Below, one piece after another: positions 15,840 to 28,198 of a stretch of 64,000 bases of DNA (within the stretch, counting starts at the first letter, position 1; every line of letters starts with the position of its first letter). The stretch is from the sequence record MH494197.1; one strand, written 5' to 3'. Made by a program: the position numbers and the translations under genes. The notes below the pieces were generated by a model. It was not told the origin of the DNA. It did no database searches and saw nothing but the letters and a program-made list of their open reading frames with translations. Source of the stretch: Escherichia phage CMSTMSU.

Positions 15840-16457
15840 TTAGAGTGAGCTTAACAGCAAATCCGCTCTGTTTGTAACTTGGCGATACCACAAGGAATTC
15901 ATGATTTCTTTCTTGAACTTCTTAGGGTTATCCATTTTAACACTTTTCCAAAGTTTGTCAAATGTTGCCAACTTATCAACGCCCATTGTGTATGACATTT
16001 CAAACAGGATACGCTGCTGTTCTTTTGTCAGATTAACTGCATCTTTCTTCTGCATCAATAGTGTAAAGTCCTCGTAAGTCCTTTTCATATCTTGCATTAA
16101 AAGTTTGTTGGCCTGTGCTTTGGTAATCCCGTTTCTGTACTTCATTGCATCAGAATCTTTCTTACCCAAATAATGCCCATAACCAATTGTATAATTACCT
16201 TTCATGTCCTTATAGGGATGAAATTTAGAATTGTGGAAAGGAACTCCAACTTTCCCACCAAGTAATTTACGTTTGTTCTTGGACTGAAATTCAATAGAAC
16301 CTTCAGCTTCTTTGATGTGATCGACAATTTCTGGATCTTTATAATCAAACAGTACAGTCACATCTGGTAACAATACGTTCTTCAAATCCTCTTTTGTTGG
16401 GATAAAGATACCCTGAGAAGTATGAAGAGTTGCATTTAAGTTGATATTCTTCAACAA
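15840..16457 (-). CDS. T4-type lysozyme (glycoside hydrolase family 24) with about 100 aa N-terminal extension
   Basis: TIGYGHYL and SLWYRQVTNRADLL match T4 lysozyme TIGIGHLL and SRWYNQTPNRAKRV. Confidence 0.8.
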   Translation of the reverse strand: MLKNINLNATLHTSQGIFIPTKEDLKNVLLPDVTVLFDYKDPEIVDHIKEAEGSIEFQSKNKRKLLGGKVGVPFHNSKFHPYKDMKGNYTIGYGHYLGKKDSDAMKYRNGITKAQANKLLMQDMKRTYEDFTLLMQKKDAVNLTKEQQRILFEMSYTMGVDKLATFDKLWKSVKMDNPKKFKKEIMNSLWYRQVTNRADLLLSSL

Positions 16458-16517
16458 AATGACATAATCTTCAATCTGTACATTTTAGGTTTAAATTTCT
16501 GTGCAATAGAATAATAA

Positions 16518-16718
16518 CTATCTCGGTTGAACCGTATAATGTTTCTCGCTGCTTGGAACTGCCTTTGGTACTGATACCTTTAGTAGTTCCTGCTTTTGAA
16601 TTTGTACAACTTGTGGTTTTAAATTATGCACCTGACTTTCGTCTAATGATGATGCACGATCACTTTGAGAAAAACCATAAAATCCAATCGCAGCGAATAG
16701 GGCTGATGAAACTAACAC
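16518..16718 (-). CDS. small membrane protein upstream of lysozyme (holin or signal-anchor candidate)
   Basis: N-terminal hydrophobic stretch LVSSALFAAIGFYGF; position next to lysozyme. Confidence 0.25.
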   Translation of the reverse strand: MLVSSALFAAIGFYGFSQSDRASSLDESQVHNLKPQVVQIQKQELLKVSVPKAVPSSEKHYTVQPR

Positions 16719-16928
16719 GCCTATGGCAATTTTAGTTTTCAGTGCTTTTTCGCTTTTTCAAAACGCCTCCTTTGTTGGTTGTTAACAATGAGCAATCACA
16801 AAGAGGGCAAAGAGGCCATTTGCAAAAGCCTCATTGGACTTTCTACAGTACTCATTTGTTCTTTGGAACATTTAAGTAGTATAGCATACTTTTTAGTTAT
16901 ATCAAGACCTATTTACCAAATAACCACA

Positions 16929-23706: not shown

Positions 23707-23709
23707 TCA

Positions 23710-24555
23710 CTTCGTTCTCTCGTAACTCAAGAAGTCACTACGTTTACTTCGTAAACTAGTTCCTTCTGAAAATGATAATGTACTTTAAAAGCTTGACGGG
23801 ATTTGTTGAGGACTATTTCATCCCGCAGGAATGAAGGTAATAAAAAGAGACAATTAAGTCTCTCTTGACGATGATGGCATCGGATATTATCGAATTGAAT
23901 TTCTCAAATTTTGGACGGATCTTTCCTGTACCAAAATTTAGAGAGCGAAAGCGGGTTGCTCGGTTTCTCTCTATCGCAGTCATATGCAACGGTCGCTGGT
24001 CTTTTCATCAACAGCACTCAGTACTAAACTCTATTCGATCAAAGTAGTACCTGTTCTCAAATTTTGGACGCAACTTTCTTGTAAAATCGCGTCCACAATC
24101 CTTGAACTCCCTTAGCAAATTCGTAAGGTGCGAACCTTATACATCTATCTAGGAACTCTCTGTGTGCTTATTGGAGTTCTTTATACAGCCGTGTCGCCGT
24201 GATTCGTGGTCTTATCTCGTGTTTGTTTGATTGCCAGTACTCTAACAGGTTTCTTTTGCTGTTCGCTACAACGGTAAAGCTCATCTATCCTTTACATTTT
24301 CAAGAGAAGTAGGTTCTCATTATCCATTTTTCAATGTCCGTTGTCATTTTACAATATACATTATATCACTAGGATGTATTATGTCCCGTTACATGTATAC
24401 CTTTTTCAAATCCTTGGAACAACGGTCAAAATTGTGTTGATGAATTCGACATCCTCTTTGATATTGGAGTCTATAGCATCATTCTCGTTTCTTGTTGTGT
24501 TCCTGTATTTGTGTTCAGGGTGATTGTATACCACCTTGACTACATTATTTAGGTC
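23710..24555. other. ORF-poor, GC-richer island with direct repeat and hairpins; candidate structured ncRNA or regulatory region
   Basis: No minus-strand ORF over about 850 bp in an otherwise tightly packed region; 16-nt direct repeat tctcaaattttggacg twice about 160 bp apart; several stem-loops including a GNRA-type hairpin. Confidence 0.3.
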
Positions 24556-24784
24556 TACAAAAATGACGATTTTTGCGTATAGGAAGCCTGAAGCTTGATG
24601 AGTTTACCATCGTTTTGTAGATTAGTCTTGTGAATTAGTTCTTCAATACCATCTAAATGGCTATAGCTATCCTGTTCTTTGACGAATGTAACAGTTACCA
24701 GTACTGACTTCTCATCTCCAAAGTCAGAGATATTTTTAACAGCACTGATGATTTCTAAGTTTGAAAAATCTAATTCTTTTAGCA

Positions 24785-25111
24785 TTACAAATATTTCCAC
24801 AAAGTTCGATAAGTGATAATTTCTTCTCTGGTAACAGAAACTTCATAGCACTTAACACCATCAGTTTCATTTCTGAATGGTTCTGCTGGTCTATCTTCTG
24901 TTAAACCTCGTTCATACGTACAATGATAATATTTGTTCGTGTTCATGTCAAGAAAAACTAGATCAAATTCTTCTGTCCATCGTCTATGCCCTTTACTTTC
25001 ATTACTAATGATTTTGTACTTAACATCGGGATTGAATGATTCAGTACTGTCATCCCATGTACCATAGTCAGTATATTCATCATCTTCATCTAACTCTGCC
25101 AGATGCCACAT
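24785..25111 (-). CDS. hypothetical protein
   Basis: 108 aa ORF. Confidence 0.3.
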   Translation of the reverse strand: MWHLAELDEDDEYTDYGTWDDSTESFNPDVKYKIISNESKGHRRWTEEFDLVFLDMNTNKYYHCTYERGLTEDRPAEPFRNETDGVKCYEVSVTREEIITYRTLWKYL

Positions 25112-25149
25112 TAACTGTGGTAAAAGATTTTAGATTTCATTTATTTTCT

Positions 25150-25180
25150 CCAAAAATAGGGACTCGATTTCTCAAGTCCC
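25150..25180 (-). terminator. hairpin terminator
   Basis: atagggact...agtccctat inverted repeat. Confidence 0.4.
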
Positions 25181-25246
25181 TATCATAACATATTAATTGT
25201 GATTATTCAATTTCTTTTGTTCTTTTTAGAGCTTTCATATGTCGTC

Positions 25247-25800
25247 CAAAATCACGAACATGCCATATATGGTCGGTTTCCCATAGTTCTGTACGTAAAC
25301 GGCGTTCTTCCAATTCTTCTGGAGTAGGAATTTTAGATTTCTTCTTATCTTTATTGAAAAAATCATTCATATGTTCTTCCAGTAGATTTCTACCCTTAAC
25401 TTTTTCCGGAATTCATCTACTGATTCAGTTTTATTAGAACGAAGACTGTTACAACGTGAACACATGGTGTTGTAATTTGACTCTAAATCAGGTCCACCCT
25501 TAGATGCTAGTTGGTTATGATCTACTGTCATCAGTACTTCATATAGACCACAAACTGCATAGACATTTAAGTGAGGTTTACCATATACCGGATCAGTGCT
25601 ATGTGAACGCTCAATGCGAACTTCAGTGGCTTCAATACCACACGCAACGCATTTACAATTCTTAACGAATGTAAGTACTTTTGTGGGAAGTATCGGAAAG
25701 TAACACCGTTATATGTATAGCGTTTCATCTGTGTACTTCTTTGATTTAACTCATCAAGAAGTGATAGTTTGGCAACATAGTAGACCTGATATTTTGACAT
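25247..25800 (-). mobile_element. HNH endonuclease gene (frameshifted)
   Basis: Hand translation gives VDHNQLASKGGPDLESNYNTMCSRCNS, matching the HNH D-H...GG...N...C..CN pattern, preceded by CxxC. Confidence 0.5.
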
Positions 25801-25802
25801 TT

Positions 25803-26117
25803 TTAATCCTCGGATTTAATTTTAACCTTAACATCTTGATTTTGTAAATCACGAATAGTTTTAATTAATGCATCATGTTTTAGTGCACAGTCATTGTACA
25901 TTGCATCCCATTTTACGAGTACTGCAAGAATTTCAGCACCATCATATCCTCTGAACCCGTTTTTATCGACCATGATTTTACTTGGTAGTGGTGTATTTTC
26001 GTCACAACGTTCAAGTAAGATTTCTTGTTCTACAATTGGTTTAGGTTGATACTTAATTTCTTCAGCACAACCACTAATTAATAGAAAAGAAATTGCAAAT
26101 ACTAAAGCGTATTTCAT
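25803..26117 (-). CDS. putative outer-membrane spanin (lipoprotein)
   Basis: Signal peptide with lipobox LISGC; start overlaps stop of upstream ORF. Confidence 0.45.
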   Translation of the reverse strand: MKYALVFAISFLLISGCAEEIKYQPKPIVEQEILLERCDENTPLPSKIMVDKNGFRGYDGAEILAVLVKWDAMYNDCALKHDALIKTIRDLQNQDVKVKIKSED

Positions 26118-26490
26118 TTGAATTTATTCCTCGCTGCAAGGGAATTCTGTTTAAGTTCATTCAGAAGTTTAACGCCATCTTCATCTAGACATACGTTTTT
26201 GTAAACTTCTCTTTCTACTATAATAGGCACTTGTGTCTCGATAACTTTAGCATTATCTTGCATTATCTTTTGGTTTCTATATAGTTTTTGCATTTTCTTG
26301 CTGCATCTTAGCGAGTGCAGAATCAACTTTCTTTTCTATTTTTGGTCAATACTTTCTTTATAACCAGTATAATAAGTATTTGCTGACCATCCACCGTAAA
26401 CACAACCTGCCATTACTCCTACTACCAAAATTGGTTTCCAATATGGTATTAAAACTTTTGAAACAATAATTTCTAGTACACTCATAATAA
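26114..26490 (-). CDS. putative inner-membrane spanin (N-terminal TM helix, frameshifted)
   Basis: Hand translation shows N-terminal hydrophobic helix followed by charged helical segment in ORF 26114..26326; adjacency to lipoprotein. Confidence 0.35.
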
Positions 26491-26525
26491 CATCTCCTAT
26501 AGTTGGTAATATTATTTAGAGTGTA

Positions 26526-28198
26526 CTATATTATATGTTTACAACATTTTTGAATATGATCTACGAGTTTATACAGTTTAGTGTTTTCATTCTCGTATTC
26601 CAAATCAACTTCAACTTTGAATTCTTCTTCAAGTTCCATGATCATTTCAATCCAGTCAAGCCAATCGAATTTAAATTTTTCCACGACTTCACATTTAGTA
26701 AGATGGAAGTTCATTGATACATCTTTTTCGGATGCATTTTTGTCGCGACTTGTAATGAATTTGACAATTGCTTTTTCAACGTCAGTTAGTTCACGTGTGC
26801 GATATTCTGGTTCAAGATACCATTCGCCATTATTGATAGCTTCCAACGAAAGTCTAAGTTCATGCATTAGTTTATAACGATCAGTACTTTTATGGATGCG
26901 GTTAACTTCGCGATTCAGTACACGTAGTGCGTCTTTGATTTGTTCGTTTAGCATAACAATCCTCTTATTTTTTCTGTACCATTGCATTTCACGGATATCT
27001 AATAGTACCTTCGTAGCCAACTTTATGTTTGGTCGCTTCGGTAGATGGGTCTTATGATACGCCACATTTCGGATGTAGTCAACCTTTTCGTTGAAATAAT
27101 CCATAACTTCTTGATACAACCACTTCCCGTTACGAATGTCCATCAACATAGCAGCATCCGGTCGGTGAACTTGGATGATGCCAGTTTCAAGTGCTTCCTG
27201 TGCTGTATTCAGCAGCCTGATTGTATGCATAGCATGTTTGCAGTCATAACCGTGGTGTGATTCAAGAATAGCACGTTTGGCATTACGATTCTGCTTCCAT
27301 TTGTGATAACTCTTACGGTTCTCACTATTTTCTTTGTATTCCTTTTCATTGAATTTTACAATGAGTTCAGGACGAACTTTCAATTCTTCTGTAGTACGTT
27401 CTTTGTTGAAGTAACGTAGTGAACCATCAGCATTCACTGTACTTTCATTCGGGTTGATAATTACCCCAAAGATGTTTTCACCGTAATGGATTAGTTCATA
27501 TCCAGAATTGTAATTCAATAAATTGAAATCACGATCTAATACTTTATCAGTACTATAATTATGTACTAAACGTACAAAATGATATTGTTTCAATGCTTGT
27601 GTTGAAACTAATTGTAATGAAGTATCACGCATGTATTTTTCAAAATCAATTTTTGTAGCATTGAATGGGTGAAGATTGGATTTATTCAAACGGTCAACCA
27701 AATACTGCGGGAATGTATCATACATCCATGAAAGTACTTCGTCAACTGGATGTTCTTCTAAAATTTCATTTAGTTTACGTTCAGCAATTCGTTCCTTATC
27801 GAGCCAGCCGTGGTGATTAGACATACGCTTAACCTGATTGTATGCATATCCACTGTATGAGTGTGCAATCTTTGAACTCAATAATTGCTGATTGAATGAG
27901 CGTAGATAGTCATAGATTTCAGTACTTTCTACGATGTGTTCCGGTTTAACCCATAGTGATTCAAGAATGTTTGGGTTAGCTTCAGTATACAGACTTAAGT
28001 ACTGATTGATTTCATAAAATTTAGTATCTTCTTCAGAAGTATCTGAAACTTCCTTAACATTAAAAAAGGAGTTAGGATATATTCTTTGTTTGCAAGGAAG
28101 ATACCACGATAATCTGTATCACTTTCTGGTGTGCTTGTATACGCCTGTGAACCAGCTAAGTGTTTCACAATAGTTTGTTCTAGAAAATTGTTTTTCAT
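26526..28198 (-). CDS. Pol-beta-type nucleotidyltransferase fused to a degenerate ACP-like C-terminal domain (frameshifted near N-terminus)
   Basis: N-terminal fragment 27995..28198 has GS-x9-DxD (LAGSQAYTSTPESDTDYRGIF); ORF 26526..27881 has HHGYDCKHAMHTIRLL and a C-terminal DWLDWIEMIMELEEEFKVEV segment resembling acyl carrier protein DSLD...ELVMALEEEF but with Ser replaced by Trp. Confidence 0.4.

Follow-up and report, generated by a model that had tools for sequence, protein, structure and literature searches.

The window analysed here is a 64,000-nt stretch of the genome of Escherichia phage CMSTMSU (sequence record MH494197.1), a jumbo phage of E. coli that belongs to the genus Asteriusvirus (121Q/PBECO4-type, RaK2-type). 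All genes of the region studied are carried on the minus strand. They include a unit that runs from a candidate late promoter through the genes for an i-spanin, an o-spanin and an HNH endonuclease to an intrinsic terminator, with a structured RNA downstream and the lysozyme gene several kilobases away:

26512..26519, minus strand: candidate late promoter, conserved CTAAATAA, about 30 nt upstream of the i-spanin ATG
26114..26485, minus strand: i-spanin gene, 124 aa in relatives
about 26338, 26284 and 26267: three 1-nt deletions that break the i-spanin gene in the window, with a premature TAG at 26336-26338
25803..26117, minus strand: o-spanin gene, 104 aa, intact, starting MKYALVFAISFLLISGC
25193..25800, minus strand: HNH endonuclease gene, 203 aa in relatives
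25678, 25407 and 25222: indels that break the HNH gene in the window
25150..25183, minus strand: intrinsic terminator that closes the spanin-HNH unit, with the stem AGGGACT/AGTCCCT at 25158-25164 and 25175-25181
23710-24387, minus strand: structured RNA of about 600 nt, 0.8 kb downstream, within a conserved stretch of 680 nt (23707-24387)
about 15840-16766: lysozyme (PF00959 and LysM), about 9-9.7 kb from the spanins

A megablast search with positions 24500-27900 returned eight E. coli jumbo phages of the genus Asteriusvirus that match over the full length at 97.7-99.2% identity (Ecwhy_1, vB_Ec-M-J, WPEC3/5, EC.P1, fEgEco12, Turkey3 and TH47), with Ecwhy_1 and vB_Ec-M-J at 99.2%, while 121Q, PBECO4 and their relatives, which also belong to Asteriusvirus, match at about 81%. 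Relative to the eight closest phages, the i-spanin and HNH reading frames of the window are broken by deletions of 1-2 nt, mostly in A/T runs. The i-spanin is split into two open reading frames, a 49-aa transmembrane (TM) piece at 26336..26485 that ends at the TAG and a 70-aa helical piece at 26114..26326, and the HNH gene into three (25567..25800, 25367..25531 and 25203..25370). In vB_Ec-M-J, the same DNA holds three uninterrupted genes, encoding an i-spanin of 124 aa, an o-spanin of 104 aa and an HNH protein of 203 aa. Furthermore, tblastn recovers the HNH protein and the i-spanin each as one full-length alignment in all of the 7-8 near-identical relatives, and the i-spanin is whole and 100% identical in seven of them.

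The breaks in the window follow a pattern that extends well beyond these two genes. In a base-by-base alignment of 3.4 kb, the window misses 13 bases in 11 deletion events, two of which comprise 2 nt, against 15 substitutions, and nearly all of the deletions shorten a run of A or T. Over 42 kb, the comparison with vB_Ec-M-J gives 208 deletion events and only 4 insertions; most of the deletions are single bases inside homopolymers of at least five, largely A/T runs, at a frequency of about one per 200 nt. Other open reading frames that were checked are split by the same kind of indel, such as those of the lysozyme and of a nucleotidyltransferase. Taken at face value, the TAG that follows codon 49 in the i-spanin gene and the three pieces of the HNH gene would mean that both genes are pseudogenised in this isolate, which would have to lyse its host without a functional spanin. 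This is extremely unlikely, given a background of like errors at this density, nearly always deletions and usually in runs of five or more, and genes that are whole in all close relatives. The frameshifts are best read, from this comparison, as homopolymer sequencing errors, that is, an assembly artefact and not biology. Since the breaks in the window appear to be sequencing errors, intact orthologs were used for the analysis. Calls of “split”, “fused” or “pseudogene” anywhere in the window deserve distrust, given the density of homopolymer deletions in the assembly, about one per 200 nt. The adjoining upstream open reading frame of 451 aa (26526..27881) is an artefactual fusion of an acyl-carrier-like gene and an RlaP-family nucleotidyltransferase gene, which relatives keep apart.

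With regard to the first two genes of the unit, the sequence-only reading had likened a lipoprotein and a TM/helical protein to separated spanins, the proteins by which the outer membrane is disrupted at lysis, and this resemblance is borne out by the TM segment, the lipobox, the conserved cysteines, a profile match, the gene overlap and the annotation of relatives. The i-spanin matches PHROG 1152, “Rz-like spanin”, over residues 9-122 (E 1.2e-27); it reached no Pfam or NCBIfam spanin model and had no match to the Pfam Rz family. In 13 out of 13 orthologs, there is a single hydrophobic window of 17 aa near the N-terminus (Kyte-Doolittle, KD, 1.5-2.8) and no second one. The AF2 model, with a mean pLDDT of 71.5, places a helix at residues 3-85, a loop or linker at 86-102 and a second helix at 103-122. 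Topology prediction had been proposed as a check on the candidates, and the predicted arrangement, a single N-terminal TM segment followed by two helices separated by a linker, is that expected of an i-spanin.

The o-spanin is 100% identical to that of vB_Ec-M-J. It carries a signal peptide, the lipobox L-I-S-G-C17 with Ala at +2, a TPLP motif and the conserved residues Cys38 and Cys77. Among the 13 orthologs compared, the lipobox cysteine is always kept, position +2 is never Asp and the two cysteines are conserved; a TPLP-type motif is found in every ortholog. The protein thus has the lipobox that would be expected of a lipoprotein and, with no Asp at +2, the predicted signal for sorting to the outer membrane. 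It matches PHROG 2425 (2e-22), a family that has no functional label, and the Pfam LysC/Rz1-like model at 17.3 bits, under the gathering threshold of 27. The start of its gene overlaps the stop of the i-spanin gene in the sequence ATGA (26114-26117), which is the adjacent-gene architecture of a two-component spanin. Existing annotations of vB_Ec-M-J, Munch and Muenster identify the pair as spanins, the Munch and Muenster orthologs being labelled o-spanin, and the close relatives Ecwhy_1 and vB_Ec-M-J annotate “Rz-like spanin” twice followed by “HNH endonuclease”. In a paper on Eneladusvirus phages (PMC7760394), the o-spanin alone was recognised. No experimental work on these spanin or HNH proteins was found in the literature that could be searched. 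The distance to the lysozyme gene, previously put at about 10 kb, agrees with the interval measured here.

The HNH gene follows immediately, as had been noticed from the sequence: just 2 nt separate its ATG from the o-spanin stop, at the junction TAAAAATG, and its Shine-Dalgarno sequence, GAGGA, sits within the 3’ end of the o-spanin gene. On the upstream side, a TAAATA core is found at an equal distance 5’ of the i-spanin start in all ten loci compared, and in six of these it comes right after the hairpin and T-run terminator of the preceding ACP gene. The CTAAATAA motif, which can be likened to the T4 late promoter TATAAATA, is a candidate late promoter of the spanin-HNH operon, proposed by analogy on the basis of a short conserved motif. 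On the downstream side, the terminator was read straight from the sequence and its homologs; its T-run (25152-25156) is shortened in the assembly of the window, and an automated terminator scan missed it because the loop has 10 nt. An equivalent hairpin and T-run follow the HNH gene, or the o-spanin gene where HNH is absent, in nine of the ten loci, and the annotators of Munch marked both terminators, before and after the unit. The i-spanin, o-spanin and HNH genes thus appear, from this layout, to form one transcription unit.

The locus as first delimited had its left end at 25247, and the HNH gene reaches 54 nt past this point, to 25193. Its intact ortholog scores 26.2 bits against Pfam PF01844 (gathering threshold 21.4) and matches PHROG 23285 over its full length (7e-112). 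In 18 HNH homologs, down to 29% identity, the residues C51/C54, H77, N79, D94-H95, N109 and C114/C117-N118 are invariant, a pattern that corresponds to a Cys4 zinc-finger ββα-Me site and assigns the protein, by its predicted active site, to the HNH endonucleases. Additionally, a C-terminal W..H.WH.R motif is conserved and specific to this family. The AF2 model has a pLDDT of 83.5, and a Foldseek search of the PDB matched the HNH core of about 50 residues alone, weakly and with E > 0.5; a sequence search of PDB chains agreed, and in these searches no structural identity was found for the non-catalytic parts of the protein. The core weakly resembles McrA, the Gme HNH nickase and the HNH domain of Cas9. 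A search of 5.8 billion proteins returned 18 proteins or clusters of the family, all of jumbo-phage type, and therefore yielded no functional clue. Shorter homologs, made up of the N-terminal domain and HNH, are encoded by Pseudomonas phage pf16 and Bacillus phage G, as isolated small open reading frames whose contexts are unrelated.

Two other assignments for the HNH protein were considered and rejected. An RNA-guided nuclease of the IscB type was discarded because the NCBIfam IscB model aligned with the HNH core only, at 25.6 bits for a cutoff of 175, in a protein of 203 aa that has no RuvC domain. A packaging-associated HNH protein of the HK97 gp74 type was likewise set aside, the neighbours here being spanins, ACP, small hypothetical proteins and a structural protein; no terminase annotation was found within ±20 kb of the HNH gene in 121Q or vB_Ec-M-J.

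The distribution of the HNH gene was compared across related phages. It occupies the same slot in all 35 Asteriusvirus records retrieved, with one copy per genome, and also in RaK2/K64-1/Muenster, Munch/7t3/PHA46, Hallingskeid, fHe-Yen9-03/04 and XaC1. Conversely, it is cleanly missing from the slot in GAP32, CBB, Serratia BF, pEa_SNUABM_47, Kaldavass and EJP2, where just 52-75 nt separate the o-spanin gene from the next gene, and the lineages without HNH, at least five, keep the remaining operon unchanged. Within one genus, Yen9-04, which has the gene, and BF, which does not, differ by a clean indel that begins just past the o-spanin stop and ends about 10 nt short of the HNH stop, and the downstream terminator is common to both. 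It is because the slot is either filled or cleanly empty across lineages that the HNH gene can be regarded as optional cargo. The open reading frame lies outside any intron or intein, bounded by the o-spanin stop and the operon terminator, and is in this sense free-standing and intergenic.

The HNH gene has diverged much as its neighbours have. The identities of its product to that of vB_Ec-M-J are 83% in 121Q, 51% in RaK2, 41% in Munch, 41% in Hallingskeid and 34% in Yen9-04, and those of the i-spanin are 78%, 60%, 46%, 34% and 35%, respectively. Neighbour-joining (NJ) trees of the two proteins are congruent and the identity matrices agree; no phylogenetic incongruence of HNH with its flanking genes, of the kind that horizontal spread would leave, was found in these matrices and trees. 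Because the NJ trees agree, one ancient gain of HNH and two losses suffice, and the losses could be placed in EJP2 and in the BF/GAP32/CBB/Kaldavass clade. Between the vB_Ec-M-J and 121Q lineages, for which dS is saturated at about 1.3, dN/dS is 0.09 for HNH, 0.12 for each spanin and 0.18 for ACP. From these comparisons, the HNH gene appears to be an old, vertically inherited and optional passenger and not a recent mobile insertion. A co-conversion of the ACP-spanin block with the arrival of HNH was considered for Yen9-04 and BF and dismissed, as the identity profile shows a gradually faster divergence and no block. The HNH region is also no divergent island relative to 121Q, its 80-86% identity being the genome-wide background.

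A different history is recorded immediately downstream. The window is 82-86% identical to 121Q genome-wide, but positions 23715-25110 are 97-100% identical, and this tract stops at the HNH terminator; dS is 0.015 in the two genes next to HNH against 1.3 in HNH itself. The PBECO4-type phages are just 91% identical in the tract, the near-identity being shared with 121Q only, which argues for a recent exchange that involved 121Q specifically. This adjacent tract of 1.4 kb contains two small genes and the structured RNA gene.

The RNA lies in a 680-nt “intergenic” stretch that is conserved at the nucleotide level across genera in which the flanking proteins are 30-50% identical. The stretch opens with TGnTATAAT (at 24360 in the window), and the indels in it have lengths that are not divisible by three. 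Copies are found three to five times per genome, at dispersed loci, and are mostly unannotated. In an alignment of 22 non-redundant copies from GenBank and IMG/VR, RNAalifold proposed 55 pairs, of which 33 show compensatory double changes. The corresponding cells of the alignment are paired in 96.5% of cases, compared with 80% after shuffling and about 42% in slid controls, and the covariation score is 0.53 against 0.08-0.11 in controls; the copy of the window has a folding energy z of -3.6. Rfam 15 gave no match to the structured RNA, and Rfam (E ≤ 1-10) and ARAGORN searches of the locus and six homologous loci gave nothing credible. No description of the RNA was found in the searchable literature, and bulk predictions (e.g. 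PMC10690425) could include it. Taken together, the alignments point, with strong covariation support, to a multi-copy family of structured RNAs, each about 600 nt long, in RaK2-like jumbo phages. As the RNA is present with or without HNH, no functional link between the two is seen.

The explanation that we consider probable is that of a three-gene Asteriusvirus unit, composed of a two-component spanin and a vertically inherited, optional and catalytically intact HNH gene, in which the frameshifts of the window are sequencing errors. One late tricistronic mRNA would be produced for the i-spanin, the o-spanin and HNH. The i-spanin would be anchored in the inner membrane via its one N-terminal helix, with two helices that reach across the periplasm, and the o-spanin would be an outer-membrane lipoprotein. 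The lysozyme, encoded separately 9 kb away, would first remove the cell wall, after which the spanin complex would collapse and fuse the inner and outer membranes, a role that we attribute to the pair from its family membership and topology. HNH would be translationally coupled to the o-spanin gene. With regard to its origin, an open reading frame of the homing-endonuclease type would have inserted itself after the o-spanin stop, ahead of the terminator, in a phage ancestral to the RaK2-like group, to be vertically inherited afterwards and lost at least twice, its catalytic site being preserved by selection. Judging from the invariant active site and the purifying selection, the protein has most likely remained an active nuclease that cuts DNA. 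Its most probable target would be a co-infecting relative that does not carry HNH, whether in marker exclusion or in homing, and a job useful to the phage itself appears less likely than this action on co-infecting relatives.

The sequence-only reading had suggested that the HNH gene could be a free-standing homing endonuclease and mark a mobile insertion. That it is a free-standing endonuclease gene is upheld by its own start and Shine-Dalgarno sequence, its intergenic slot and the empty sites in related phages, and as a marker of a mobile insertion it holds in a deep-historical sense only. An active and recently arrived homing gene would fit the nuclease family, which is typical of such genes, the insertion between genes and the empty sites, as well as the sharp breakpoint at the 3’ end of HNH, where dS between the clade of the window and 121Q falls abruptly in the next two genes. 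It is nonetheless improbable: the gene is found in the same place throughout the 35 Asteriusvirus records and in another five lineages, its divergence keeps pace with that of its neighbours (83/51/41/34% identity, the i-spanin having 78/60/46/35%), with a congruent tree topology, it is present as a single copy per Asteriusvirus genome, and the recently exchanged tract excludes it. Conservation in place had been named beforehand as what would speak against mobility, and it is observed within the genus and in at least five other lineages. The comparison with phages that lack HNH, also proposed at the outset, gave clean empty junctions in GAP32, CBB, BF, Kaldavass and EJP2 and none among the Asteriusvirus records. 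Together with the dN/dS of 0.09, the genome comparisons largely refute recent homing, and nothing in them points to recent mobility of the gene. The same breakpoint can also be read as a trace of HNH activity, in which the enzyme cuts near its own gene and repair drives the exchange of the adjacent 1.4-kb tract between lineages. This would explain both the position of the breakpoint at the HNH terminator and the change in dS from 1.3 to 0.015, and HNH would then be a long-lived recombination-initiating element and not a dead passenger, but we regard it as a highly improbable reading; that the enzyme acts together with the neighbouring RNA is more remote still.

A domesticated nuclease that benefits the phage, with its expression timed to the late or lysis phase, is the main alternative to be weighed against the optional passenger. 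Such a protein could degrade host or unpackaged DNA before release, or resolve or process phage DNA. The low dN/dS and the invariant active site would be in line with this, as would the co-transcription and translational coupling with the spanins in several genera and the conserved, family-specific C-terminal motif. Furthermore, it is unusual for a selfish homing gene to be present throughout a genus, to share the phylogeny of its neighbours and to be under strong purifying selection, and a domesticated function would fit these features equally well. Yet HNH is dispensable in at least five lineages whose operon is otherwise unchanged, and it has none of the terminase or portal adjacency of packaging HNH proteins, so that we hold domestication to be rather unlikely. 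The preferred explanation is still the vertically inherited, optional HNH gene behind a spanin pair.

The anatomy of the locus is ordinary and already known, in that the spanin pair and HNH are annotated in the GenBank records of near-identical phages. What the comparison adds is an endonuclease gene that occupies a single intergenic position in several genera, is subject to purifying selection and was cleanly lost twice, a history that informs how selfish nucleases turn into permanent residents. The structured RNA family is the more interesting by-product and deserves a study of its own.

Among known systems, the closest are the annotated cassettes for i-spanin, o-spanin and HNH endonuclease of vB_Ec-M-J (EcMJ_243-245), 121Q (gp511-513) and Munch (CPT_Munch_182-184), which are orthologous to that of the window and have the same order and orientation. 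In the vB_Ec-M-J clade, the spanins are 100% and the HNH protein about 98-100% identical to those of the window, which differs from the annotated cassettes in that two of its three genes are frameshifted by assembly errors. The spanin pair also recalls T4 PseT.3/PseT.2, where an i-spanin with an N-terminal TM segment is followed by a lipoprotein o-spanin, with the same 4-nt start/stop overlap (ATGA), similar sizes (117/99 aa in T4 and 124/104 aa here) and a position far from the endolysin gene. BLASTP found nothing between the two pairs and profile HMMs gave about 4 bits in a 3-sequence database; the resemblance is architectural. Lambda Rz/Rz1 belong to the same functional class, as reflected in the “Rz-like spanin” label of the PHROG of the i-spanin and the weak Rz1-like LysC match of the o-spanin, but the o-spanin gene here is not embedded in the i-spanin gene.

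With regard to the nuclease, the best matches in sequence and fold are the HNH domains of Cas9/IscB, McrA and Gme, which share the ββα-Me core, the DH...N...CxxCN pattern and the Cys4 zinc ligation. These matches are weak and cover about 45-60 residues, and the HNH protein here carries no RuvC, recognition or other partner domains. The packaging HNH proteins of the HK97 gp74 type (Kala et al. 2014, as cited in PMC7760394) are also small phage HNH proteins that are conserved rather than sporadic in their lineage; unlike these, the HNH gene here is not beside terminase or portal genes. The T-even MobA-E and I-HmuI-type endonucleases are likewise small, intergenic and intron-less and ride on the transcription of a neighbouring operon. 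Their sporadic presence has a counterpart here across the wider phage group, where five lineages lack the gene, and none among the Asteriusvirus records retrieved. BLASTP and profile HMMs showed no meaningful similarity between the HNH protein and T4 MobE. Unlike the free-standing HNH genes of the T-even phages, the gene described here is fixed in its genus, shares the phylogeny of its neighbours and experiences strong purifying selection.

Alignment of window positions 3567-46562 against the near-identical relative vB_Ec-M-J (L012) revealed 208 deletion events and 4 insertions in the window over 42 kb. The deletions are mostly of 1 nt and fall in A/T runs of at least 5, a pattern of systematic homopolymer under-calling; many window ORFs are therefore falsely split or fused. 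Affected loci outside the spanin-HNH unit include:

15840-16766, minus strand: lysozyme gene (PF00959 and LysM), 308 aa in vB_Ec-M-J, likewise split in the window
26526-27881: a 451-aa ORF, an artefactual fusion, considered together with 27995-28198

The N-terminal piece of the split lysozyme opens with LVSSALFAAIGFYGF, a run of hydrophobic residues and possibly a signal-anchor-release segment. Two genes have been artefactually joined in the 451-aa ORF: one is acyl-carrier-like (PHROG 18343/5934; 138 aa in relatives), the other encodes a nucleotidyltransferase of the RlaP family (PF10127; 412 aa). In nearly all the genera compared, an acyl-carrier-like gene directly precedes the spanins. Between the acyl-carrier-like and nucleotidyltransferase genes, phage 121Q has an insert of two tail-fibre genes plus one small ORF (L011:22537-25955). 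The insert is missing from the window clade, where the corresponding point is at about 26960, and represents an indel of a host-range module 1 kb from the spanins. In phage CBB, the orthologs of the i- and o-spanin (L014:1771-2450) bear the label 'structural protein', a surprising annotation for spanins.

At the other end of the operon, a good sigma-70-like promoter is found directly upstream of the terminator hairpin in three related phages:

L005:3102-3177, sigma-70-like promoter in BF
L004:3104-3179, sigma-70-like promoter in GAP32
L007:3697-3764, sigma-70-like promoter in Yen9-04

The elements are TTGACA/TTGATT and a TATAAT-like hexamer with a spacer of 16-17 nt, and in Yen9-04 the -35 element falls within the final codons of HNH. 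Given the position of the predicted promoter just upstream of the hairpin, the latter would double as the 5' end of the following transcript.

The HNH terminator is also the exact position of one boundary of a tract (window 23715-25110) that shares 97-100% identity with 121Q, against a genome background of 82-86%, and in which dS is 0.015 as compared with approximately 1.3 in the HNH gene. Across the same tract, PBECO4-type phages show only 91% identity. Downstream of the HNH gene, the tract contains the RNA gene listed below and two small genes, encoding proteins of 118 aa and 132 aa, the latter annotated as 'structural protein'.

23710-24387, minus strand: conserved structured non-coding RNA candidate, ~600 nt
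L017:1407-2078(-), L022:6696-7296 and L018:1398-2078(-): examples of its paralogs

Copies of this candidate are dispersed through all RaK2-like jumbo phage genomes, with 3-5 per genome. Its folding z-score is -3.6, compensatory changes occur at 33 of the 55 consensus pairs, and 96.5% of cells are paired, against ~42% in slid controls. Invariant loops include AAACCGRRCAACCCG, CACGGCAAUGCGGC and AAGGGAG. The candidate carries an extended -10 promoter of its own (TGnTATAAT), together with a hairpin and U-run. A search of Rfam 15 returned no entry for this RNA, which is probably the most novel item close to the spanin-HNH locus.
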